Below, one piece after another: positions 1 to 37,044 of a stretch of DNA of 64,000 bases (position 1 is its first letter; the number at the start of each line of letters is the position of its first letter). The stretch spans positions 4,572 through 68,571 of the IMG/VR virus record IMGVR_UViG_3300037961_002553. The stretch is one strand, 5' to 3'. A program made the translations under genes and the position numbers. This stretch comes from a virus (Duplodnaviria > Caudoviricetes). Under the pieces are notes generated by a model that saw only the letters and a program-made list of their open reading frames with translations, ran no database searches and was not told where the DNA came from.

Positions 1-15
1 ATTAATTTAATTATT

Positions 16-243
16 TTAATTGCCAAAGTCTGTTAAACTAGTTTGTTTATCGTATCTATTAATAAAATCATTAATATGGCTTTTAACTGTTTGTAGTTTC
101 TGGCCTATTTCCCCTAGTTTAGTAATATCGGCTATACTCATATTCTTCATTTGTTTGCGTTTAGCCTTCATTTCAGATAAAATCGCGACAATCTCTTTAT
201 TGATACCCTGTAATAGTTCTAATGCCTTATCCTCACTAGACAT
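16..243 (-). CDS. hypothetical protein (helical, 75 aa)
   Basis: ATG-initiated ORF with a TTATA box ~30 nt upstream on the - strand. Confidence 0.6.
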   Translation of the reverse strand: MSSEDKALELLQGINKEIVAILSEMKAKRKQMKNMSIADITKLGEIGQKLQTVKSHINDFINRYDKQTSLTDFGN

Positions 244-749
244 CCTGTATCATGTAATGGGAGTAGGCCATACCCTATAATGGTGGCGGTTTTAGCCTTG
301 TTTAATTAAAGTTAATGCTTCAAAGAGGGGCTTTTAAAGCCTTTCGCTCTAGATGAGAAGAAATAAAAAATTTGAAACAAAGCCATATGGTTGTAGATTA
401 TGAATGCGGGAACGGTTGTTAATAACTACCATTTTCATCTATTGTCTTATTTTCATCTTCCTCTACGGTTTGCTATAGAACGCTATTGGTAACTACAAAA
501 TGTTTGTTTACAGCCATCTATGATGAATAACCATCTAAGTGCAGCAACCCTAAATGATAGTTATTAAAAACATTACAACCATATGGTGATGCTTTGCTAT
601 AACCCCCAAGTGGGACGGGAAGAATTACCTCTTTTCTTCCCGCCCCCGTATCTCCCTCTATTCCCTGTTTGTTTGGGTCATAGTGCCATGACGAGAGGCT
701 CATGGCTAACGGGCCGTTTTGGGGTGCTACGGACTTCATGCCGCATTGT

Positions 750-959
750 TTAGTCGTATAGGCCAGCCAAAGCCCATTGATATTCTTCTTCCCATTGTCG
801 CTTGTATTCATCAAGGAAATAGGCAAAGAAGCGACGAGAGGAGAAATTAGGGTTATCTCGCTGGAACATATCGGAAACGGCTTCAACGGTGGCTTGGCTC
901 ACATCAAAGACTTCTGCGAGGGTTTCAGCCATTTTCTTGTAGTGTCGTCGTTGGAACAT
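750..959 (-). CDS. cassette protein with DNPNFSSRRF motif (small phage-type protein)
   Basis: ATG at 959 lies ~22 nt downstream of an AAAACCTTATAT box, consistent with a leaderless transcript. Confidence 0.75.
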   Translation of the reverse strand: MFQRRHYKKMAETLAEVFDVSQATVEAVSDMFQRDNPNFSSRRFFAYFLDEYKRQWEEEYQWALAGLYD

Positions 960-1073
960 GATTAACCGCTTGATAAGCGGATATAAGGTTTTATTACCAA
1001 AGTATGCAACCATATGGTAATTGCTTTGGTTTTACCTCAAGCAGTTTAGACCCATGCTTAGGGGTGTTTAGAC

Positions 1074-1340
1074 TTAGATTACCTTAGAAGCGGCCCAGAC
1101 CTCAAGTTTTTGGATTTCTTCAGTTTGTAGGCCACGGTTAGAAGTCGGGTTAGGGAAACCGTGAATCTCCCGATAGTCGCGCAAACCAAAACGACGGTTC
1201 AAGTTATTCTTCGCGTATAGTCGCATTTTCTGGAATCTGTTGAAGTGTTGGTTAGAGTAGCCCAACCCATTGATTTCGTTCAAACAGAACTCTTCTCCGC
1301 TTATCTTGCATACCCCAGTAACTGTCTTTTCTTTTGACAT
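1074..1340 (-). CDS. cassette hypothetical protein (88 aa)
   Basis: Only ORF between sites 1009 and 1389; AAAACCCTAATATA box ~21 nt upstream. Confidence 0.75.
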   Translation of the reverse strand: MSKEKTVTGVCKISGEEFCLNEINGLGYSNQHFNRFQKMRLYAKNNLNRRFGLRDYREIHGFPNPTSNRGLQTEEIQKLEVWAASKVI

Positions 1341-1425
1341 GATACTTCTTAAATTAGTAATATATTAGGGTTTTATTCAAAGTATCAAACCATATGGTTA
1401 GGCTTTGCATTAACCCCATATAGGG

Positions 1426-2026
1426 GCTTCACAGGGGAAAAAGCCGTGAAGAGTATCATTCCTCCTCGGAAACCTCCATATCTGCTTTCACAGGGGTTGG
1501 AACGATTTGTGGCACACCGTCTTTGACGGCGAGGCCATCCCATCGGTTTTCCTTGATTGCCTTAACCATGTAGGTATGAGCCTTACCACGGAAAGAATCA
1601 ACCAATTCGCTGAAGGAGCCATAAACCCCGCCAGTTCGTCCGTGTGGCACGATAACCGACAGAATCAAGTCGTGATACTCAGTAGGGATTGTGGCAATAG
1701 CACCTGCCACGGTTTCCTCCACAGTCGCCAAAACAAGTTCCTGTTCGTCCGAAAGCGTGGATTCTCGCCCTCGTCGTGCCGCAGGAAAACCCTCCATAGT
1801 GGAGCCAATTGAACGAATAGCCGTCCAATAGGTGCTTCGTAGTTCATCAGTTCCCGCATTATCGCCCAAAGTGAGCGAAAGGAGAACAGCGTTCAAATTG
1901 TCGCTTGGTTCCTGTGTTTCGGCCCAAGCCCGCACTTTGTTTGTGTTCAATGTCCAATTCTTCATCTTCATTTTTTTCACCTCTTTCCTAAAAAAGATAC
2001 TCCGCGTCGTTTTTCCCCTGTGGAGC
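1426..2026. repeat. imperfect ~31-bp inverted repeats (1426-1457 / 1996-2026) bracketing paralog A
   Basis: GCTTCACAGGGGAAAAAGCCGTGAAGAGTATC versus reverse complement GCTCCACAGGGGAAAAACGACGCGGAGTATC. Confidence 0.85.
1456..1971 (-). CDS. cassette paralog A (unknown family; ELRSTYWTAIRSIG, PAARRGRES, PHGRTGG and RWDG motifs)
   Basis: GAGGTG Shine-Dalgarno (SD) before MKMKNW; strongly similar to 2599-3105. Confidence 0.85.
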   Translation of the reverse strand: MKMKNWTLNTNKVRAWAETQEPSDNLNAVLLSLTLGDNAGTDELRSTYWTAIRSIGSTMEGFPAARRGRESTLSDEQELVLATVEETVAGAIATIPTEYHDLILSVIVPHGRTGGVYGSFSELVDSFRGKAHTYMVKAIKENRWDGLAVKDGVPQIVPTPVKADMEVSEEE

Positions 2027-2136
2027 AATAACCCACGCAGGTTGGCGTATAAGGTTGTTTCTACGCAAAGCGATAAACAACCATATGGTGTTGCTTTGTT
2101 TATACCCTAAACAATACACCAACAAAAGAATAGGGC

Positions 2137-2385
2137 ATGAACAACCACCAAGCAACCGCGATTATGAATCTTATTGCAGAAACCTTTCCAAGCCTTATCC
2201 CGTGGCTTGAAGGACAATACATGAAAGCCGTTTTTAAGGATATGACGCTCTATGCCGATGAACCACACGCTATGATTGGATTAGCGGAATTTGCCGCCAG
2301 CATTGAGGCTTTTGCTGATGCTATCGCTGAAGCCTCACTTGAAGAGATGTTTCACCTTATGGCTGATATGATGGGAGGTGCTTGA
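2137..2385 (+). CDS. cassette hypothetical protein (82 aa, acidic, helical)
   Basis: ORF directly after site 2080, with TTTATA at 2099. Confidence 0.7.
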   Translation: MNNHQATAIMNLIAETFPSLIPWLEGQYMKAVFKDMTLYADEPHAMIGLAEFAASIEAFADAIAEASLEEMFHLMADMMGGA

Positions 2386-2387
2386 GT

Positions 2388-2552
2388 ATGAGAATTTCAC
2401 ATTGTCCGACCTGCGGCACAGAATTGGCTAAGGATGATTTCATGTCCTTCGCTTTCATCTTAGGAGGCAACATTTGCCGCCATTGTCTTGAGGACGACCC
2501 TTCGGGGTCAAAAGAACAAAGCATGACCATATGGTTGTGCTTTGCCAGTTGA
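2388..2552 (+). CDS. small CPxCG zinc-finger protein (54 aa) reading through palindromic site 2526
   Basis: GGAGGTG SD; MRISHCPTCG...ICRHC; translated by hand, below the ORF-track cutoff. Confidence 0.6.
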   Translation: MRISHCPTCGTELAKDDFMSFAFILGGNICRHCLEDDPSGSKEQSMTIWLCFAS

Positions 2553-2577
2553 AAACGAAACCCCGCCGCTAAGCGGG

Positions 2578-3153
2578 GCTGCGAGGGGAAAACCCGCATC
2601 ATTCCTCTTCTTGACCTCCTTCAGCCGATTTCACGGCAGGTGGGGTCAATGCTGGGATTTCACCGTTCATGGTTCCATCCCAACGACCTTCTTTGTAGCC
2701 CTTAACGAGAGCGTCATAGGCCTTTTTGCCCATTGACTGAGCAAATGCCATAACATCGTCAAATGCGCCACCAGTTCGCCCATGAGGGAGAATAACGGTG
2801 GTAATGAGGTCAGGGTTAGTAATGCCCGCAAAGGCAGTAATAACCGCATTCTTCACAGAAGTAGCATTTAGGTCTACTTCTTCGGGCAAAGACGATTCTC
2901 GGCCTCGGCGGGCGGCTGGGAAATCATCATAAGGACTCCCAATTGAGCGAATAGCCGTCCAGTAAGTAGACCGCAATTCATCGCTATCCGTTGCATTTCC
3001 AAGTGTAATAGACAAAGAAATGGCTTGACCCACTTCTCCCCTATCTTCACGCTCAAGCCACGCTTGAACGGCATTTGTGTTCTTAATCCAGTTATCTTGC
3101 TTCATAATCAATTCCTCCAAAAAGGTTTGATGCGTCCGTTTTCCCCTCGGAGC
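2578..3153. repeat. inverted repeats (2578-2601 / 3128-3153) bracketing paralog B
   Basis: GCTGCGAGGGGAAAAC-C-CGCATCA versus reverse complement GCTCCGAGGGGAAAAC-GGA-CGCATCA. Confidence 0.85.
2599..3105 (-). CDS. cassette paralog B (same family as 1456-1971)
   Basis: GGAGG SD before MKQDNW; shares DELRSTYWTAIRSIGS, FPAARRGRES, PHGRTGG and RWDG. Confidence 0.85.
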   Translation of the reverse strand: MKQDNWIKNTNAVQAWLEREDRGEVGQAISLSITLGNATDSDELRSTYWTAIRSIGSPYDDFPAARRGRESSLPEEVDLNATSVKNAVITAFAGITNPDLITTVILPHGRTGGAFDDVMAFAQSMGKKAYDALVKGYKEGRWDGTMNGEIPALTPPAVKSAEGGQEEE

Positions 3154-3274
3154 AACCAACGGCGACCATAGGCGACTATGGTTGCTTTTTCATTAAACAC
3201 TCGCAAAGCGAAAAGCAACCATATGGTAGGACTTTGGAAGTAGCCAAGCATAACCACCAATCAAGAGGATAACC

Positions 3275-3568
3275 ATGCAAAGCGTGTTCGTCGTCCAAAC
3301 CAATGAAATGCCTCTCTCCCGAAATCCCGATTGGAAAACTCAACTCCAATTCGGAATCTTCCGCCGTCGTGAAGATGCCGAGAAAACCATGTTCAATGTC
3401 ATGGCTCGCAAAATGCGAGACGGAATTGATGAGATTCGTGAAATGACCTCCACCAAGCGAGGCAAGGGCAAAGCCGCCTACAATGCCAAAGTCTACGAAA
3501 TCACCGAGGAAATCCCACGCTCAATTCGTGTTCACGAAATCCGTGTTTTGCCTGTCAGGGGTTTCTGA
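3275..3568 (+). CDS. cassette hypothetical protein (97 aa, basic)
   Basis: GAGG SD; followed by a GGGGC-TTCG-GCCCC hairpin. Confidence 0.75.
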   Translation: MQSVFVVQTNEMPLSRNPDWKTQLQFGIFRRREDAEKTMFNVMARKMRDGIDEIREMTSTKRGKGKAAYNAKVYEITEEIPRSIRVHEIRVLPVRGF

Positions 3569-3575
3569 CCTTGAC

Positions 3576-3592
3576 GGGGGCTTCGGCCCCCT
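3576..3592 (+). terminator. UUCG-loop hairpin ending the cassette
   Basis: GGGGCTTCGGCCCC right after the stop codon. Confidence 0.55.
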
Positions 3593-3715
3593 CTTGGCTA
3601 AAACAAAGTATTACCATATGGTATTGTTTCTTTGTTATAAATACCCTCCAAAATTCAAATCTTGAGGTTTAGGATTTAAATCAATAAGTTAGGAGCATAC
3701 CCACTTAGGAAGAAC

Positions 3716-3850
3716 ATGAAAGAAGCATACGAAGAAGTCAAGTGGTGGTATGAATTCGCTATGGGCCTAATGGAAGTCTGTCAAAAGAATTACCTCCATG
3801 CGGAGGTGCAAGAGGTGTTAAGTCGCCTTTGCGGGAGTGAGGAAGAATGA
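3716..3850 (+). CDS. cassette small protein (44 aa, MKEAYEEVKWWYEF...)
   Basis: Hand-translated ORF between sites 3613 and 3917. Confidence 0.55.
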   Translation: MKEAYEEVKWWYEFAMGLMEVCQKNYLHAEVQEVLSRLCGSEEE

Positions 3851-4039
3851 AAAGATGACCGATAACCCCTTCAAATACCCATTATATGGGAGCGTTGGGG
3901 TGAATAACAAAGCATTACCATATGGTTGTTGTTATGCTTTGCACTAATCAAATAACCATAAGTGAAACGCCGCCTACTCCATGCATATGAGACTCACTCC
4001 GATACTTTGTTTCTTCATCAAGAATTGGCGCGCCAATAA

Positions 4040-4213
4040 ATGATTACTTGTTGCTTTCTCGCCTTACTGCTCTGTGTTTCGGCTTTGTTTCACTATGGTT
4101 TTATGGCCACTAATAGCCATAGGAATGTGAAAGGGTGGGATGAAGAATTGGGTATCTCCAAGACTGGAGCGATTGGGTCGCTCTCACTAATTGGTGCTCC
4201 TTTGGTTTCTTAA
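4040..4213 (+). CDS. possible small membrane protein (57 aa), preceded by a 20-aa ORF at 3981-4043
   Basis: AACCATAAG box ~20 nt before ATG 3981; ATGA overlap; hydrophobic N-terminus. Confidence 0.4.
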   Translation: MITCCFLALLLCVSALFHYGFMATNSHRNVKGWDEELGISKTGAIGSLSLIGAPLVS

Positions 4214-4273
4214 GAGCCAGTCTGCTGATTTTACGAACATGGTTAGTAGCCATGCGCCTTTTGAGCCTTAATC

Positions 4274-4411
4274 GCTTTCACAGGGAACAAATAATCTATG
4301 CTACTCAGCCGTCATATCTGCTATGTGTCCCACTACAGGAAAAATCACACCTTACCCCCACCAACAAGGGTATTCGGTCAATCCCCTCCGAGGGGAGCGA
4401 CCCCCCGAAGC
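4274..4411 (-). ncRNA. putative ~140-nt structured non-coding RNA cassette
   Basis: AACCATAAG box upstream; begins GCTTCGGGGGG and ends TTCCCTGTGAAAGC like the other cassettes; internal CCCCTCGGAGGGG hairpin; no ORF. Confidence 0.45.
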
Positions 4412-4520
4412 AATAGAACCGAGCGATTATCGCTTATGGTTCTCCATGTGCAAAGCAATATAGAACCATATGGTTTTACTTTGGTAAAACCCCTCAGCAA
4501 TTGCTTCACAGGGGGGATAA

Positions 4521-4883
4521 TCACCATTCATCCCTTGGGTTGAAATAAGTGTGCCTTCCCCTATCATCGGAGACAAAAGAGCCGCCCCAACCCATTTCAT
4601 ATGAGCGAGTTCGCATTTCGGCGTTGTCCTCGTCAATTCGGGCTTGAATGTCCTTGTCGGTATAATGGAACGGTTTGTGCTCTGCTGCGTATTCCTTCCA
4701 AATTGGGAGAATCTCGTCCAAGTCGTCCTTTTCCATCATTTCGGAAGAAACATCGGCCTTCTCCCAAAAGGTTTCATAGATGGTATCTTCGCAGAAGAAA
4801 TACCTAACTCCTTCCATGTCCCTCACCCATCGGTTTTCATCGTCTGTTTTCTCAGTCAGCCATTTGTAAAAAGATTTTGCCAT
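4521..4883 (-). CDS. cassette hypothetical protein (120 aa, acidic and aromatic)
   Basis: GGAGG SD; ATACCTTAAT box upstream; 3' trailer CCCCCCTGTGAAGC. Confidence 0.75.
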   Translation of the reverse strand: MAKSFYKWLTEKTDDENRWVRDMEGVRYFFCEDTIYETFWEKADVSSEMMEKDDLDEILPIWKEYAAEHKPFHYTDKDIQARIDEDNAEMRTRSYEMGWGGSFVSDDRGRHTYFNPRDEW

Positions 4884-5080
4884 TTTTCAACCTCCAGCGA
4901 AAAATTGACGGTAGCGGGCGATTAAGGTATTATTTATTCAAAGTAAATAATACCATATGGTTTGAATAAATCAAAGAGCGCAGAATGTTCTTATTTAGCC
5001 ATATTCAAACACGCTGAAACGGGGAGGATTTTCAGCCCCCAAAAATCCGTCAAATTTGACAGGGTGTTTCTCAACTGTGG

Positions 5081-5545
5081 TTATATTAATTCGTATTCAT
5101 ATTCTAATATTCAATATTAGTATTATAGTAAAATAAATCGGTTGTCTCATGGTTGGGAGGGGATGAGACGAGACAACACACGGAAGAATCATCAAGGTTA
5201 TGCAACATAAGTAAAAATATATTTCTATTATCTCATTATCTCATCATCTCATCATCATCATCACTACTACTACACACAACCCCTTATTTTCTTAGGGGTA
5301 TGGAGAGAGAAAGATTCCCCTTTTGTGATGAGACGAGACGAGACAACTATTTTTTGCGTGTTTCCACAAGGTTCTAGGGGGTTGTGTTGCATAACCCCAT
5401 CGTCTCAAGATGAGACAACAGGCGAGACAGTCTCATGCACATGGCAATCAAAGTTATTTCAATGGGCAAACTATTGTTGAAAATAAAATCTATTTGATTC
5501 AACAAACGGATTAATTTATCATTTAAGTTAAAATGTAAAAGTGAA
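5081..5545. repeat. candidate replication origin or terminus: GAGAC/GTCTC iterons and a TCATCA microsatellite flanked by AT-rich tracts
   Basis: GTTGTCTCAT 5141, ATGAGACGAGACAAC 5163, ATGAGACGAGACGAGACAAC 5328, GTCTCAAGATGAGAC 5402, GAGACAGTCTC 5424; no credible ORF. Confidence 0.55.
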
Positions 5546-5622
5546 AAAGGGCCGTAGAAACTAGGGGTGCTTGTGAAAAAGTTAGTGATTCCCTCAAGGG
5601 AGGTGCATTCGGAGGCATTTCT

Positions 5623-5637
5623 GGACTCCTTTATATA
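5623..5637 (+). promoter_or_regulatory. conserved viral promoter GGACTCCTTTATATA (copy 1)
   Basis: Identical 15-mer also at 14280 and 30221; contains an archaeal TATA box. Confidence 0.75.
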
Positions 5638-5687
5638 CCGAAAGGCAACTGTTGAAAATACCCCGCAAAGGGGAAGGAGAGATATAC

Positions 5688-6161
5688 ATGGATGATACCA
5701 CATGGGAAAGCCTCAAAATTGAGGTGAACGAATACCTTGAAGCCGACACCACGCTTGATGCAGGATTGCGTCAAGTCGTTGAATTGAACCTGCAAATCGG
5801 GACGAACAACCCCGATGAGCGAACTGCCGCCGAAGGTGCGCTTAAAGCACTTTTGAAGGGCCGTGATGGAACCCCGTTCCGCCGAGGCCAAAAGAGCGCA
5901 GTTCCAGCCGCAGTTCGTGTTTCAATTGACCGAATCTGTGGAGTTGTTGAAGAAGCCGCAATTGGCTACTACAACCACGATGCAGTTATTGGTGCAATTA
6001 CCATGAAGCACATCAAATCTGGTGGCGGTGCTTACGATGGCGCAGAAGATTACGCTTCTGCCGTTGTGAAGAGAACCCGAAACAACCTTGGCAAGATGTT
6101 CAAGGACGGTTCTTGGGATGGTAGCGTTGATTCCCTTTTAGGCGAATCAAGCGACCTTTGA
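5688..6161 (+). CDS. diverged paralog C of the cassette family
   Basis: PFRRGQKS, HIKSGGGAYD and SWDG align by eye with PAARRGRES, HGRTGGAFD and RWDG; GGAG SD. Confidence 0.8.
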   Translation: MDDTTWESLKIEVNEYLEADTTLDAGLRQVVELNLQIGTNNPDERTAAEGALKALLKGRDGTPFRRGQKSAVPAAVRVSIDRICGVVEEAAIGYYNHDAVIGAITMKHIKSGGGAYDGAEDYASAVVKRTRNNLGKMFKDGSWDGSVDSLLGESSDL

Positions 6162-6209
6162 AGTTAATTCTTCAAACCCGCACAATTCCAGTTCTCTGAA
6201 CTGAACAAC

Positions 6210-6248
6210 GGGGAATAGGGAGCCAAGGCTCCTTATTCTCCCTTTTTT
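6210..6248 (+). terminator. hairpin plus T-tract terminator
   Basis: GGGAATAGGGAGCC-AA-GGCTCCTTATTCTC followed by CCTTTTTT. Confidence 0.65.
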
Positions 6249-6321
6249 CCACAAGGGGAAAGAGAGGGGCTGAGAGGGGCTTTCGGGCCTCACCTCTCTT
6301 TCCCCGCCTTTGGGTGGTTAA

Positions 6322-6579
6322 ATGCGATTAGTAGAAGAAGTCTTTGTTAAGGCTAAAGAGGATTTAATTTGTCAATCCTGCGGTGTTGATATACCGAAGG
6401 ATAGCAACCATCTTCTTGAGTCTTATGTTCATCATGGCGTTATTTCAACTAGTCATTACTGTTTAAACCCAAAGTGCAATCCACCAAATAATGTTCGTTT
6501 GAAGTTATTTTGGGGAACAATAGCCATAGGCGTTTCTCTGTGGCTAATTTACTTTTTCTATCAAAACGCAGGGTTTTAA
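6322..6579 (+). CDS. zinc-finger protein with C-terminal transmembrane (TM) helix
   Basis: CQSC...HYCLNPKC plus a hydrophobic tail. Confidence 0.65.
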   Translation: MRLVEEVFVKAKEDLICQSCGVDIPKDSNHLLESYVHHGVISTSHYCLNPKCNPPNNVRLKLFWGTIAIGVSLWLIYFFYQNAGF

Positions 6580-6586
6580 GTCTATT

Positions 6587-6661
6587 CGCTTAGGCGACCC
6601 GTGGCGGCGTGGCATATACGCCCTCGGCAGGTGGGGGTATGCTTGAACAGTCGCCAAGCGA
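6587..6661 (+). ncRNA. putative structured small RNA
   Basis: Closing stem TCGCTT(A)GGCGAC / GTCGCCAAGCGA with internal hairpins; lies upstream of the tRNAs. Confidence 0.4.
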
Positions 6662-6720
6662 CTTCATTTCACTTTTACAATTTGAAATGGTGTGGCTTTT
6701 CTTCTGTTTGAGTAATTCAC

Positions 6721-6805
6721 GCTGAGATGGCTGAGTTTGGTTAAAAGCGCAGGGCTTAAACTCCTGTCCGTATATGGTTCGCAGGTTCAAATCCTGCTCT
6801 CAGCA
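6721..6805 (+). tRNA. tRNA-Leu (TAA)
   Basis: Acceptor GCTGAGA/TCTCAGC, anticodon loop CTTAAAC, long variable arm, GTTCAAATC T-loop. Confidence 0.92.
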
Positions 6806-6814
6806 TCTTTTCAC

Positions 6815-6889
6815 GGAACGGTAGCACAGTCTGGTTAGTGCGCCAGTCTCATAAACTGGTGGTCGCAAGTTCAAATCTTGCCCGTTCCA
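6815..6889 (+). tRNA. tRNA with CAT anticodon (elongator Met or Ile2)
   Basis: Acceptor GGAACGG/CCGTTCC; anticodon arm CCAGT-CTCATAA-ACTGG; lacks initiator features. Confidence 0.92.
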
Positions 6890-6897
6890 TTTTACAT

Positions 6898-6959
6898 GGG
6901 GAAGGTTGAACAGGGGGCTAAAGAGTAATGACCGAGCAATCGGTTTTGTTCCCTTCCCC
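6898..6959 (+). ncRNA. putative hairpin RNA downstream of the tRNAs
   Basis: GGGGAAGG...CCTTCCCC closing stem; GAACAG/TTGTTC and ACCGA/TCGGT inner stems. Confidence 0.35.
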
Positions 6960-6990
6960 GCCTATTCCACATTTTTAAGAGGTAATAAAA

Positions 6991-8418
6991 ATGAAACATA
7001 CAAATGAACAAATCGCAATCTTTGATTGCATAGAAAACACAGAAGACCACCTAATTATTAATGCAGGTGCAGGAACAGGGAAAACGACAACGATTGTTGA
7101 AGCAGCAAATCGTATCAATGGACAGAAAGCCGCATTCTTGGCTTTCAATAAGTCTATTGCTACTGAATTAGCAGAAAGACTTCCAACCGATGTGGAAGCG
7201 AAAACCTTCCACGCTTTCGGATTCGCTGCGATTCGTGCGGCTGGTGTTAAAACAAAGGTGAACAATTTTAAGGTCAATAACATTATTAAAGACCTTCATG
7301 GTGCTGATTTTTATGTCGCTCCACTAAAGAAACTTGTTTCTCTCGTTAAGGGAAGTATGGTTGATGGAACCGACAAAAAGGCAATTAACCAACTGATTGA
7401 TGAATACAATATCAACTTCAATTCTGACCGTGAAGAACGAATTGCAGTAGAATCAATACCTGCAATTCTCACGATGTGCCGAACACAGACTCATATCATT
7501 GATTTTGATGACATGATTTGGATGCCCATTGTTAATGGCTATCCTTTCCCAAAATATGATGTTTTGTTTGTTGATGAAGCACAGGATTTTAACGAAGTGC
7601 AACGAGAAATGATTTCTTTGTGCGTCAATGGTGGCCGTTGTATTATTGTCGGTGATAAAAACCAAGCAATTTACGGTTTCCGTGGTGCTGATTCAAACTC
7701 AATTGCCATGTTCCGACAACGACTTCTCAAGGGTGAGAGAAAAATCAGCGAATTTCCTCTCTCAATTACTTGGCGTTGTCCTAAATCGGTTGTTCGTGAG
7801 GCCAACCGATATGTGCGTGAGTTTAATGCTCCTGATTTTGCCGAAGAAGGCACAGTTATTGTAGATGCTCCGTTCAATCCACAACGAAATGATATGGTTC
7901 TTTGCCGATACAATGCTCCTTTGGTGTCTGCTTTCTATGATTTGATTTCACAGGGCAAATCGGCTTATGTTCTTGGTCGTGATATGACGAAGGGTTTAAT
8001 TACCGCCGTTCAAAAGATTTCTAAGAACAACCACATGGGCGTTGAAGAGTTCACGCAGTTATTCCAAAAAGACTTTGCTTACAACTATCAACGACTTCTT
8101 GACCAAAACAAAGAGAATCAAGCGATGGCTCTTGAAGATAAGCGTGATTGTATTATGATTTTCGTCAAGAAAGCAACGACTGTTGGTGGAATCATTGAAG
8201 AGATTAAGCGTGTCTTTGATGGAAATGATGAAGGTGAAATCATGCTTTCAACTGTTCACAAGGCTAAAGGTCTTGAAGCAGACAATGTTTATATTCTCGC
8301 AACTGAGCGAATGCCTCATCCATACGGTAGTTTGGAAGAGAACAACATTTGCTATGTAGCGATTACACGGGCCAAAAAGAATTTGTTCTATTGTGGCCCA
8401 AAACCAGGAAAAATTTGA
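6991..8418 (+). CDS. UvrD/Rep-like superfamily 1 helicase
   Basis: AGAGTGKT, VDEAQD, VGDKNQAIYGFRGA, STVHKAKGLE, YVAITRAK. Confidence 0.95.
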   Translation: MKHTNEQIAIFDCIENTEDHLIINAGAGTGKTTTIVEAANRINGQKAAFLAFNKSIATELAERLPTDVEAKTFHAFGFAAIRAAGVKTKVNNFKVNNIIKDLHGADFYVAPLKKLVSLVKGSMVDGTDKKAINQLIDEYNINFNSDREERIAVESIPAILTMCRTQTHIIDFDDMIWMPIVNGYPFPKYDVLFVDEAQDFNEVQREMISLCVNGGRCIIVGDKNQAIYGFRGADSNSIAMFRQRLLKGERKISEFPLSITWRCPKSVVREANRYVREFNAPDFAEEGTVIVDAPFNPQRNDMVLCRYNAPLVSAFYDLISQGKSAYVLGRDMTKGLITAVQKISKNNHMGVEEFTQLFQKDFAYNYQRLLDQNKENQAMALEDKRDCIMIFVKKATTVGGIIEEIKRVFDGNDEGEIMLSTVHKAKGLEADNVYILATERMPHPYGSLEENNICYVAITRAKKNLFYCGPKPGKI

Positions 8419-12935: not shown

Positions 12936-13011
12936 GGGCGTATGGTGTAATAGGATAGCATTTTGGCCTTCTAAGCCGAAGATTCGGGTTCAAATCCTGA
13001 TACGCCCGCCA
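12936..13011 (+). tRNA. tRNA-Arg (TCT) with encoded CCA
   Basis: Acceptor GGGCGTA/TACGCCC-G-CCA; anticodon arm TTGGC-CTTCTAA-GCCGA. Confidence 0.93.
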
Positions 13012-33769: not shown

Positions 33770-35437
33770 ATGATAATTAGTAGAATGAATGATGGAAATA
33801 GAATATATAAATCTTGGAGAGAAAACGGAGAAAAGAAACATGAGATTGTTCCCTTTAGACCTTATTTCTATGTTAAGGAAGATAGTGCAGAACCATTTGA
33901 ATATAGACCTTCTAAATATATTAGTCGGGAGTTTGAGTATATTCGTGGCGATTGGGTTAATCTTAACAACGAGCCGTTGAAGAAGGTAATCGTTGAGACT
34001 TCTCACGATATGCGAAAAGCAAAGGATATGTTCGGTGAAACCTATGAAGCCGATGTTCCTTTTCACTTTCGGTATTGTGTTGATGAGTTAGATGAAATGC
34101 CCGAATATAAAATGCGTAAATGGTATTGGGATATGGAATGGCAACAAGGTGGCGATTATCACGACCAATTGACTACAATTGTTGTTTATGATAACTACGA
34201 TGAGAAATACTATCAATGGTCGTGGTTCCCTGAAGATGAATGGATTCCGAACAAACAACTTCAAGCAACCGATAATTATGAAACATATTTTTCTTTTTCA
34301 GAAAGAACAATGATTGAGTCTTTTATGAACGCTATGATTGTAAAAGACCCCGATATGTTAATTGCTTGGTTTGGTCATTTTGCTGATTTACCAAAGTTAT
34401 TTGAACGAGCGTGTGCGGTGGGTCTTGACCCTCGCATTATTTCACCAACGGCAACAGTCAAGGGAGTTAAGTCTGTAAAAGACGGCTATGAGTTCAAATA
34501 TTCGGAGAAAGGTTTTTCTCCAATTGAACAACCTATTGGTGGGCGAATTACACTTTCTTTGGACTTAGCATTTGAAAGACAATGGAATGATTCTCAAAGA
34601 GGAACATTACCCTCGCTTTCTCTTGATTATATCGGTGAAACAGTTCTTGATAAAAAGAAGTTGGTATCGGAAAAGTTTCCAGACACCAATGAATTTTATC
34701 GCAGGGCTTGGTTAGAAGATACACAAACATACCTCAAATATGCTTTGAGAGATGTTGAATTGATGGTTGAGATTGACGAAACTAATTTTTGTAGTGAAGC
34801 AATTCTTTCTCTTCAACGATTACTGAAAGCACCATTTGATGCTTGTTTTTATGCAAGTCATATGGGTTCTATCTACTTTATGCGAAACGCTTGGTGGAAA
34901 GCACCAACGGGTAGTAAAGTGGATAAAAGAGAAGAATATGAAGGGGCTATGATTTACGACCCATTAAGTGAAGGAACAAACGGATTACATTTAAATGTAG
35001 CCGCCTTTGATTTTGCTGGTCTATACCCTTCAATGATGATTGCTCGCAATATCAGTTGGGAAACTAAATCAGTAGAGCCGACTGAATTTGCAGTTAATAT
35101 TCTTACTCCGAGAGACTTTAGCGAAACAAAACATGAGCAGATGCTCTATTACAAAACGGATAAACTCGGCTTACTACCAAGAGCCGTCCTTGAATTGAAG
35201 GAGTTGCGAAATGAATATAAACGACTGATGCGAGAGGCAAGAGAAACGGACAATGGCGAGTATGCGAAGTGGTATAACAATCAAATGGCAGTTAAGCGTC
35301 TAATGGCTTCTTTTTATGGCATTGTTGCCTTTCAAGGATTTGGTTGGGCTGATGTTGATTTGGCGGCATCTATTACTGCAAGTGCAAGAGAAGCAATTAG
35401 ATTAGCGGCGTTTGCTGCAAAGGAGATGGAAGCATGA
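33770..35437 (+). CDS. polB: family B DNA polymerase, N-terminal part (exonuclease plus motifs A and B)
   Basis: FRPYFY, YEADV, WDME, FDFAGLYPSMM, QMAVKRLMASFYG; ends at ITASAREAI before motif C. Confidence 0.93.
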   Translation: MIISRMNDGNRIYKSWRENGEKKHEIVPFRPYFYVKEDSAEPFEYRPSKYISREFEYIRGDWVNLNNEPLKKVIVETSHDMRKAKDMFGETYEADVPFHFRYCVDELDEMPEYKMRKWYWDMEWQQGGDYHDQLTTIVVYDNYDEKYYQWSWFPEDEWIPNKQLQATDNYETYFSFSERTMIESFMNAMIVKDPDMLIAWFGHFADLPKLFERACAVGLDPRIISPTATVKGVKSVKDGYEFKYSEKGFSPIEQPIGGRITLSLDLAFERQWNDSQRGTLPSLSLDYIGETVLDKKKLVSEKFPDTNEFYRRAWLEDTQTYLKYALRDVELMVEIDETNFCSEAILSLQRLLKAPFDACFYASHMGSIYFMRNAWWKAPTGSKVDKREEYEGAMIYDPLSEGTNGLHLNVAAFDFAGLYPSMMIARNISWETKSVEPTEFAVNILTPRDFSETKHEQMLYYKTDKLGLLPRAVLELKELRNEYKRLMREARETDNGEYAKWYNNQMAVKRLMASFYGIVAFQGFGWADVDLAASITASAREAIRLAAFAAKEMEA

Positions 35438-35928: not shown

Positions 35929-36146
35929 CCGATGATAGAGTATATTTAGAAACACTAAAAGAAATTAAAAACATGAAAGAACAAATGCATAAAGAAATTT
36001 CTAGAATGAAGGCGGAAATGGATATTATGTATATTGAATTACAAAGAGCAAAACAAGAAATTGGTGCTATTCGTGAAATACAAGAAGAAGTAGCAAAATT
36101 AGCAGGTGTTCCTGTTGGAATGCTATTTACAAATTACCGAGCGTGA
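35925..36146 (+). CDS. coiled-coil hypothetical protein
   Basis: ATGA overlap; heptad pattern. Confidence 0.6.
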   Translation: MTDDRVYLETLKEIKNMKEQMHKEISRMKAEMDIMYIELQRAKQEIGAIREIQEEVAKLAGVPVGMLFTNYRA

Positions 36147-36150
36147 TAAC

Positions 36151-37044
36151 TTGAAAGTAGTTTATGGACATACAGATTCTATCTATGTGCAGATAGATTC
36201 GGTGGAGCAAGCACAAAAATCAATTAAAGAGATTGAGGCAAAAGTGCGAGAACATTTTCCTAATGTGATGGGATTAGATAATCATCCCGTTGTTCTTGAA
36301 TTTGAAAAGTATTATTCAGCATTGGGTGTTGGAACAACCAAAAACAGAAACGCAGGATTAGTGTCTTGGGAAGATGGAGAATGGTTAGAAAAACCAAAGT
36401 TCAGTATGACTGGATTTACGGCGAAGCGTGTTAGCGAAACAAAATTAGCGAAAGAAGTGCAAACAAATGCTCTCAAAATGTGGGTAGAACAAAAGACCTA
36501 TCCTGAAATTACCAAGTATTTGTATGAAACATTTAAATCTGTGAATGAAGGGGATATTCCAATCTCTTCCATTATCAAAAGAAGCCGTCTAAGGCAAAAC
36601 CGTTTCACAGTAAAATGCCCCGAATGCAAGACACAATATCATTTGCGTGATTGTATTCATCTAAAGCATAAAGTTTGTGAAAAGTGCGCTACACCAACGA
36701 AGCAATTTACCACTCTTGAAGGAAAGAAGCCGACGATTGGTTCGGGTATTGCTGGTGTTTTGTATGCTTGGGAAAAGAAAAAGGCTAATTTTGATGACTC
36801 TTATCTCTTCTTAAAAGTAAAGAGAGTAAATGATTTCTATACGCATCCTTTAACGCAAGAAAGGCGAGAAGTGGAATACTTATCAGGCATAACCTACGAG
36901 GATTTCAAGGGTTGTAGTCCCGATTGGGGCTTCTATTCGCAACAGGTTATCAAGAAGGCGGAACCCATTTTCAAGGCTATGGGATGGGACACAACGGCCA
37001 TACGCACAGGAAAAATACAGTCAAGCCTTGACGAATGGTGGTGA
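36151..37044 (+). CDS. polB: family B DNA polymerase, C-terminal part (motif C and thumb) with a Zn-ribbon insertion
   Basis: VVYGHTDSIYV, LEFEK, KNRNAG, CPEC...CEKC; C-terminal PIP-like QSSLDEWW; TTG start. Confidence 0.88.
   Translation: MKVVYGHTDSIYVQIDSVEQAQKSIKEIEAKVREHFPNVMGLDNHPVVLEFEKYYSALGVGTTKNRNAGLVSWEDGEWLEKPKFSMTGFTAKRVSETKLAKEVQTNALKMWVEQKTYPEITKYLYETFKSVNEGDIPISSIIKRSRLRQNRFTVKCPECKTQYHLRDCIHLKHKVCEKCATPTKQFTTLEGKKPTIGSGIAGVLYAWEKKKANFDDSYLFLKVKRVNDFYTHPLTQERREVEYLSGITYEDFKGCSPDWGFYSQQVIKKAEPIFKAMGWDTTAIRTGKIQSSLDEWW

Follow-up and report, generated by a model that had tools for sequence, protein, structure and literature searches.

Leader and trailer elements of paralogs A and B

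The first few kilobases of the viral genome analysed here contain two paralogous genes, A and B, and the question they raise is whether the 5' leader and 3' trailer of each message are kept complementary by selection and, if so, whether this complementarity acts in the mRNA or in the DNA. The analysed stretch, referred to below as the window, comprises 64,000 nucleotides (nt), corresponding to bases 4572-68571 of the single 68,571-base record IMGVR_UViG_3300037961_002553. The original prediction had proposed either a selected panhandle that closes the whole mRNA or the terminal inverted repeats of a mobile DNA unit. Selection for leader/trailer pairing was strongly supported by the comparison of homologous units, and closure at the RNA level was probably its purpose, as judged from sequence evidence.

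The elements of the three members of this gene family were located in the window as follows.

1456-1971, minus strand: coding sequence of paralog A, an open reading frame (ORF) of 171 amino acids with a UGA stop codon at 1456-1458
1996-2026, minus strand: leader element of paralog A (outer arm 2010-2026, inner arm 1996-2002, predicted transcription start, +1, at 2026), which folds alone as a 5'-terminal hairpin
1426-1458, minus strand: trailer element of paralog A, from stop codon to arm end (inner arm 1451-1457, outer arm 1426-1442)
1414-1426, minus strand: hairpin CCCC-UAUAU-GGGG, abutting the trailer arm of A and followed by UUAAUG, a presumed terminator or 3'-end hairpin
2047-2057, minus strand: CAACCTTATAC, the TATA-like box of paralog A, located -31 to -21 relative to the arm start
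2599-3105, minus strand: coding sequence of paralog B, 168 amino acids, UGA stop codon at 2599-2601; the protein is 48% identical to that of A
3128-3153, minus strand: leader element of paralog B (outer arm 3138-3153, inner arm 3128-3134, predicted +1 at 3153)
2578-2601, minus strand: trailer element of paralog B (inner arm 2595-2601, which takes in the stop codon, outer arm 2578-2593)
2559-2580, minus strand: terminator-like hairpin of 9 pairs after the trailer arm of B, with the U-rich tail TCGTTTTCAA
3174-3185, minus strand: TATA-like box GCAACCATAGTC of paralog B, at a distance from the arm start equal to that in A
5688-6161, plus strand: paralog C, 20% identical to A and lacking leader/trailer pairing, used as an internal negative control

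All four arm sequences quoted in the original prediction were found in the window on the minus strand. The repeat finder returned outer arms of 17 nt for paralog A and 16 nt for paralog B, both 94% complementary. The inner stems were GAGUAUC/GAUACUC in A (1996-2002 and 1451-1457) and CGCAUCA/UGAUGCG in B (3128-3134 and 2595-2601), and both overlap the UGA stop codon, as had been claimed. The same holds for the non-pair at position 4, which is C.A in A and C.C in B, and for the start of both arms 22 nt past the end of the conserved TATA-like box. The trailer of A also folds alone as a hairpin (CUUCAC...GUGAAG).

From the predicted +1 to the stop codon, the predicted leader/trailer duplex contained 26 pairs in A and 33 in B, with energies of -45.5 and -52.9 kcal/mol, respectively. 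Twelve genes were tested in the first 6.6 kb, and strong leader/trailer pairing was not found in the other 10, for which energies ranged from -4.0 to -28.2 kcal/mol (-12.3 kcal/mol for paralog C). No copies of the family beyond A, B, and C were detected in the genome by tblastn.

Inverted repeats of such size are not rare in this genome. A general scan (at least 13 matches, spacing of 120-2500 nt) returned 107 of them, compared with 43-68 in 20 shuffles, and is too noisy to serve as evidence. The case therefore rests on the placement of the arms, on conservation and covariation in homologs, and on specificity within the genome.

Covariation across homologous units

Viral contigs were scanned for homologs, yielding 34 loci with flanks. 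After removal of duplicate units (4), 33 distinct units including paralog C were retained, and the whole-unit alignment comprised 32 units. RNAduplex predicted a long leader/trailer duplex in essentially every A-type or B-type unit, with a different sequence in each. These duplexes contained 19-33 predicted pairs interrupted by small loops, and in nearly all units they started at the stop codon or a few bases past it. The stop codon was UGA in all 32 aligned units, as well as in six of six extra units found in the flanks of the loci. Those six, the ones with usable flanks, were all paired; in 8 more units the flanks were too short.

The pairing was specific to each unit. Cognate leader/trailer duplexes of the 33 units had a mean energy of -39.0 kcal/mol, compared with -24.6 kcal/mol (standard deviation 6.7) for non-cognate combinations. 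The unit's own trailer ranked first for 15 leaders and among the top 3 of 33 for 29 of the 33, the exceptions being L002, L019, L020, and paralog C. In seven of the seven genomes holding two paired units, cognate pairs were stronger than cross pairs between A and B. In contrast, the orthologs of paralog C (n = 5) were unpaired, with energies between -9.1 and -20.7 kcal/mol.

Covariation was counted over the 32-unit alignment on the 17 outer-stem pairs of paralog A. Both sides had changed in 13 of the 17 stem pairs. Cells of the stem able to pair amounted to 78.8%, compared with 64.9% after shuffling, and none of 500 shuffles gave a value as high. Cells with a double change numbered 83, compared with 33.5 in shuffled data. 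The covariation score was 0.355, compared with 0.136 in the shuffle control, which leaves relatedness in place and in which none of 500 shuffles reached 0.355. When partners were slid by 1-3 columns, the score was at most 0.126, a comparison in which the true register is somewhat favoured because one of the aligned sequences supplied the reference structure. From pair types differing on both sides, at least 24 compensatory double changes are inferred. Several stem columns hold three or four different Watson-Crick pairs, which makes the conclusion of covariation robust. Pairs 1 and 2 (G-C and C-G), on the other hand, were invariant across units.

Covariation in homologs had been named as a test in the original prediction, and its statement that pairing is kept while arm sequences differ between paralogs was borne out across the 32 units. 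Pairing persisted among units down to 30% protein identity, with arms differing at most positions. The arms of paralog A and L002 differ widely, although the proteins are about 90% identical.

The arms might, in principle, be left over from an inverted duplication and have no present function. The sole support for this explanation is the resemblance of the two arms to each other, and it is contradicted by the covariation: neutral decay would have erased pairing among units that share as little as 30% protein identity, and paralog C shows what a unit free of the constraint looks like. Such an origin is extremely improbable.

Local hairpins at both ends

The original prediction had treated the mismatch at position 4 as a property of the long stem. 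The mismatch proved to be real and conserved, as position 4 was unpaired in the long helix in 25 of 32 units, and position 3 in 17 of 32. Its assignment to the long helix did not hold: it marks a local 5'-terminal hairpin in which positions 1-5 pair locally. When each leader was folded alone, a hairpin starting at nucleotide 1 or 2 was obtained, and each trailer folded alone gave a hairpin ending at the last bases of the arm. Leader position 4 has a local pair in 27 of 32 units, while a pair with the trailer is possible in 5 of 32. For leader position 3, a local pair was found in 31 of 32 units, compared with 17 of 32 for the trailer partner. The matching trailer positions were paired locally in 21-23 of the 32 units.

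A register-free helix test was applied, with shuffling restricted to the downstream part of the leader. A contiguous 5-bp helix from nucleotide 1 was present in 18 of 25 distinct leaders, compared with 4.3 in shuffled sequences (standard deviation 1.9, maximum 11; none of 1000 shuffles reached the observed value). RNAalifold gave no consensus on the 32 leaders, in which loop lengths vary while the alignment is gapless.

In units such as L002, a base pair is flipped between the two hairpins, being U-A in the leader stem and A-U in the trailer stem. The flip leaves both hairpins perfect and gives U.U and A.A mismatches in the long helix. The hairpin loops are complementary to each other (e.g., GGGGAAA and UUUCCCC), and the loop and most of the stem of the leader hairpin form the reverse complement of the trailer hairpin. 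These patterns suggest that two conformers are under selection, namely a pair of terminal hairpins with complementary loops and an extended panhandle.

Predicted transcript boundaries

A conserved box, CAACCTTATA, was found at -31 to -22 upstream of every leader arm in the 32 units, with T at -25 in 27, A at -24 in 26, and T at -1 in 28 of them. These positions correspond to the spacing of the archaeal TATA box and start site. Of the 32 units, 29 could pair with the trailer at +1 and 28 at +2; the number dropped to 5 at -1 and was at chance level further upstream. At the other end, the trailer arm leads directly into a CCCC...GGGG hairpin with a U-rich tail in most homologs.

Full-length mRNAs of paralogs A and B were also folded. 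The panhandle was present in both the minimum-energy and the centroid structures, with z-scores of -5.75 and -6.55, respectively (20 shuffles each), and the hairpins after the trailer arms of both paralogs were kept in the full-length folds.

Evidence from sequencing runs consisted of assembled contigs with RNA-run shares of at most 0.17, so that gaps in cover and the lack of joints are uninformative. Two RNA contigs from one study (records 9 and 22) end at 3153 ± 1 nt, the predicted start of B, which is a weak hint of a transcript end at this position.

As a separate candidate, the trailer arm was considered as the leader of an antisense promoter belonging to the downstream palindrome. This candidate was rejected, since the spacing from CTTTG differs (about 19 versus 40 nt) and the unit-specific covariation would also be left unexplained.

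Palindromes and rearranged modules

An inverted repeat in DNA is the same sequence property as complementarity in RNA, and covariation alone therefore cannot separate the two. The arms could act in DNA as the terminal inverted repeats of a mobile cassette, as inversion sites of a recombinase, as inverted protein-binding sites, or through a cruciform or single-strand panhandle during replication. Each arm is itself a small palindrome, like many protein-binding sites, and the region is recombinogenic, with relatives in which modules are reordered and one is inverted. The positions at which these modules are joined were consequently of importance, and they involve a short palindrome.

1389-1398: palindrome ACCATATGGT, bounding module A on its 3' side; modules A and B have further boundary copies at 2080-2089, 2526-2535, and 3218-3227
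383, 578, 1009, 1389, 2080, 2526, 3218, 3613, 3917, 4465, and 4952: palindrome cores in the first part of the window

Ten copies of ACCATATGGT occur in the first approximately 5 kb, compared with 0.05 expected. The sites total 11 when one variant copy is counted, and they usually lie within CAAAG...CTTTG.

The window at 1368-3965 was compared with three relatives, G001, G002, and G003 (loci L035-L042). In G002, A and B are present in swapped order, and the blocks shared with the window are 1368-2132 and 2526-3236. The neighbouring module is inverted between palindromes in the other two relatives, corresponding to window positions 3613-3942 in G001 and 3613-3965 in G003, and the module at 3237-3612 had no match in G001. 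The rearranged blocks of A and B end at the ACCATATGGT palindromes, 52-106 nt outside the arms. Since the blocks extend to the palindromes, the arms are not the junctions, and recombination seems to take place at the palindromes.

Further observations also speak against an action in DNA. The orientation of the ORF relative to the TATA-like box and the Shine-Dalgarno sequence was constant in 38 of 38 paired units, and no inversion was seen. Neither a direct repeat nor a target-site duplication was found beside the arms; in most of the 32 units, the flank reads TA(G/T)T on the upstream side and CCC on the downstream side. The predicted +1 is where the repeat starts. The divergence of the arms between paralog A and L002 fits pairing, not recognition of a fixed sequence, and homogenisation between arms would erase the non-pair conserved at positions 3-4. 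An action in DNA was thus regarded as unlikely, and the mobile-unit version of the original prediction is disfavoured by blocks that run from palindrome to palindrome. As regards a transposase, Pfam scanning of the 81 window ORFs revealed no such domain; the sole ORF inside the unit had no Pfam, PHROG, or fold match.

As regards the palindromes themselves, 11 copies of (A/G)CCATATGGT separate nearly all genes of the first 5 kb (window 383-4961). TATA-like boxes adjoin them on one or both sides, and palindromes also flank the gene family in all related contigs. The palindromes have the appearance of operator sites shared by bidirectional early promoters.

Proposed pairing of the mRNA ends

The preferred explanation is RNA-level long-range pairing of the untranslated regions (UTRs) at the 5' and 3' ends, which would proceed from hairpins with matching loops to a panhandle. 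An RNA panhandle is favoured because the repeat starts at the predicted +1, ends at the terminator-like hairpin, and is kept in full-length folds; it is preferred to a DNA-level explanation because the units do not move arm-to-arm. Considered together with the selection for pairing evident from covariation and specificity, the panhandle closing the mRNA, as originally predicted, is probable. The sequence data show the complementarity, its covariation and unit specificity, its fit to the predicted transcript boundaries, and the local hairpins; the action in RNA, the order of folding, and the function are inferred.

Several points weigh against this explanation. The invariant pairs 1 and 2 may reflect only the consensus at the start site and the terminator hairpin's base, and GCU also starts other predicted transcripts of the region. 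The long helix has to compete with the local hairpins. The predicted start of B is spanned by a low-depth RNA contig of a different study (X4, record 17); for A, the best RNA contig ends at 1995, within the leader; and no contig marks a 3' end. Mismatches in the duplex on the sense strand were equally common as G.U-type (11) and A.C-type (13); given this lack of strand bias, pairing at the DNA level or on the antisense strand stays compatible with the data. A run of five U within the trailer arm of paralog A could halt archaeal RNA polymerase before the arm is complete. Finally, the encoded protein offers no functional rationale for the presence of the feature in this family alone.

According to the proposed mechanism, each A-type or B-type gene would form its own transcription unit. 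Such a unit would consist of a palindromic operator-like site, a TATA-like box, the start site, a leader element of about 30 nt, the Shine-Dalgarno sequence, and the ORF, followed by the UGA stop codon, a trailer element of about 30 nt, and the terminator-like hairpin. The 5' hairpin would form first, during transcription. Once the 3' UTR has been made, the complementary loops could dock and zip into the long-range duplex. The resulting panhandle would link the stop codon and the whole 3' UTR to the first approximately 30 nt of the mRNA, while the Shine-Dalgarno sequence and AUG would stay free. A post-transcriptional role would be the most likely one, either shielding both RNA ends from exonucleases or affecting the stability and translation of a strongly expressed early gene in some other way.

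A more specific role is also conceivable. The UGA stop codon is usually paired with the leader and, in the panhandle, lies about 10-25 nt from the Shine-Dalgarno sequence. The helix might therefore keep terminating ribosomes beside the start site for re-initiation on the same message, or the ends might be sealed into a circular mRNA; both ideas are speculative and rather doubtful. If one of them were true, the panhandle would be the equivalent, in an archaeal virus, of mRNA circularisation in eukaryotes, brought about purely by base pairing and free of proteins.

Possible processing or ligation sites and a possible timing switch

The panhandle could instead be a site of processing or ligation, at which the paired ends are cleaved by an endonuclease of the double-strand or splicing type or are joined to form a circular mRNA, as occurs in archaeal rRNA precursors. 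Its geometry resembles that of ribosomal RNA (rRNA) processing stalks, in which flanks pair around a functional RNA, and the 5' end adjoins the base of the 3' hairpin, so that the ends would be close to each other. In archaeal rRNA processing stems, the flanks pair over a long range and carry bulge-helix-bulge motifs. Long-range pairing of flanks is thus common to both; however, the bulge(3)-helix(4)-bulge(3) motif was present in none of the 32 predicted duplexes, and the sizes of internal loops were not conserved. Scanning of the 81 window ORFs revealed no domain of RtcB, of a dedicated RNA ligase, or of RNase III, the only related match being an ATP-dependent DNA ligase. No back-joined contig was observed in four RNA runs, for which contigs are a poor test. 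A function of this kind was considered very unlikely.

In another arrangement, the closed panhandle would be an inert store and the open two-hairpin form would be translated or degradable, with 3' trimming or a factor as the trigger. The two conformers are mutually exclusive and both appear to be selected, as the long helix covaries and the local hairpins are enriched, and the base-pair flip between arms keeps positions 3-4 locally paired. An early 5' hairpin combined with 5'/3' closure is also the design of hok mRNA as outlined in PMC9841398. [quoted passage not shown]

The units described here resemble the tac/fbi fold-back of hok, as far as that account goes, in the pairing of the extreme 5' end with the 3' end and in the alternative local structures. 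They differ in having the ribosome-binding site outside the helix, a helical protein of about 170 amino acids, and an archaeal host, and there is no sequence relationship. The Shine-Dalgarno sequence (GAGGTG or GGAGG) and the start codon lie outside the duplex, the leader arms ending 24 nt (A) and 19 nt (B) before AUG, and closure therefore does not obviously block initiation. The protein showed no signs of a toxin in Pfam and PHROG, and we know of no antisense partner RNA. A timing switch of the hok kind was accordingly viewed as improbable, and the preferred explanation remained end-to-end pairing with a role in protection or translation.

Comparison with other systems

End-to-end pairing of mRNA has precedents in a few bacterial messages and in the genomes of RNA viruses. 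In influenza viruses, bunyaviruses, and flaviviruses, terminal sequences pair, with covariation, and close the RNA genome in the service of the viral polymerase. Those panhandles belong to RNA genomes, whereas the present ones are predicted in mRNA of a double-stranded DNA virus.

The closest precedent, and the closest match to the function proposed here, is the hbs mRNA of Bacillus subtilis, for which a 14-bp pairing of the 5' and 3' UTRs is described (PMC5737220). As presented there, hbs is a single bacterial gene studied in nuclease experiments; the present case involves 19-33 predicted pairs that reach the stop codon, in a multi-copy viral family, and was derived from sequence alone. In haloarchaea, both UTRs jointly control translation, which was framed as a forerunner of mRNA circularisation (PMC2636863). 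The abstract of that study mentions neither base pairing of the UTRs nor covariation, whereas an explicit pairing is predicted here. By analogy, the panhandle could offer a physical route for 5'/3' UTR coupling of the haloarchaeal type.

A literature search, with subscription journals and supplements outside its scope, found no description of end-to-end mRNA pairing in archaea or archaeal viruses. In the magrovirus literature searched, promoters, UTRs, palindromes, and inverted repeats of this kind were not mentioned. The units would thus extend long-range pairing of mRNA ends to a new domain of life, and the comparative support is unusually strong. Compensatory changes number in the dozens and conservation reaches down to 30% protein identity, which places the pairing among the better-supported long-range mRNA structures obtainable from sequence alone.

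Archaeal mRNA carries neither a cap nor a poly(A) tail, and the panhandle offers a testable handle on the protection of mRNA ends, or on translation coupling, in archaea. A further product of the analysis is a prediction of transcription starts, of the layout of promoters and operators, and of terminators in uncultured marine viruses of an abundant group, together with a natural collection of 5'/3' pairing modules that are orthogonal to one another.

Encoded protein

The protein of paralog A had 181 metagenomic homologs at E ≤ 0.001, many of them from marine surveys, and belonged to no Pfam or PHROG family. Its structural model was confident and all-helical, with a predicted local distance difference test score (pLDDT) of 85.1. 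Fold searches (Foldseek against the PDB and viral structures, and VIA-align) gave no informative match, the best VIA-align hit (Z 7.9) being a generic three-helix match. PDB-sequence and Atlas searches gave no lead.

The C-terminus of the family is a conserved acidic tail (EEE), encoded on the minus strand at 1459-1467 in A and 2602-2610 in B. The codons of this tail, GAGGAGGAA and GAAGAGGAA, resemble Shine-Dalgarno sequences and immediately precede the paired UGA stop codon.

Genome setting and other elements of the region

The window carries the genes of a tailed virus, including a tape-measure protein and tail genes, together with an archaeal-style replication gene set. The latter comprises a clamp loader, a processivity factor, an ATP-dependent DNA ligase, and ribonucleotide reductase; a GroEL-type chaperonin is also encoded. 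The following features were noted in addition.

33770-35437 and 36106-37044: family-B DNA polymerase, split in two ORFs with about 670 nt between them
6721-6889 and 12936-13011: viral tRNA genes for Leu(TAA) and Met(CAT), arranged in tandem, and for Arg(TCT), three in all
4132-4407, minus strand: full-length match to the manA RNA motif (RF01745), 47.4 bits against a gathering score of 55.2, E 5.3e-10

Magroviruses of group B, whose hosts are Marine Group II archaea, are characterised in PMC5434244 by tRNA-Leu, tRNA-Arg, and a split family-B DNA polymerase, as well as by a GroEL-type chaperonin, ribonucleotide reductase, and tailed-virus structural genes. The gene content of the window matches this description of group B (PMC5434244), and the virus is termed magrovirus-like from gene content alone. 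A search of a phage database with the window DNA gave no match. Close relatives that share this gene order have a length of about 94 kb and are rated complete; the record of 68.6 kb is therefore probably a fragment or an incomplete assembly.

The first approximately 5 kb of the window has a G+C content of 42-47%, compared with 32-40% elsewhere, and carries short genes on both strands. In an Rfam search of window 1-7000, the arms and UTRs had no match; the only matches were two tRNAs and the sub-threshold manA-like RNA, located elsewhere in the region. The manA-like match sits in an ORF-free stretch of about 470 nt, downstream of a palindrome promoter, and the predicted transcript begins with GCUUCGGGGGG. 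The element at 4132-4407 probably represents a structured, non-coding viral RNA.

A 12-mer identical to the outer end of the trailer arm of paralog A, GCTTCACAGGGG, was found downstream of an unrelated gene at 4521-4883 (minus strand). This copy has no partner in the leader of that gene, and the complementary CCCCCCGAAGC lies about 100 nt off, across a palindrome (4401-4412 and 4503-4516). The stray pair may be a remnant of module exchange; a remnant paralog in 3940-4412 was not found by tblastn.

The stretch at 5130-5650 is non-coding and rich in short repeats, including runs of GAGACGAGAC and CATCAT, and it contains an inverted repeat at 5196-5210 and 5382-5396.

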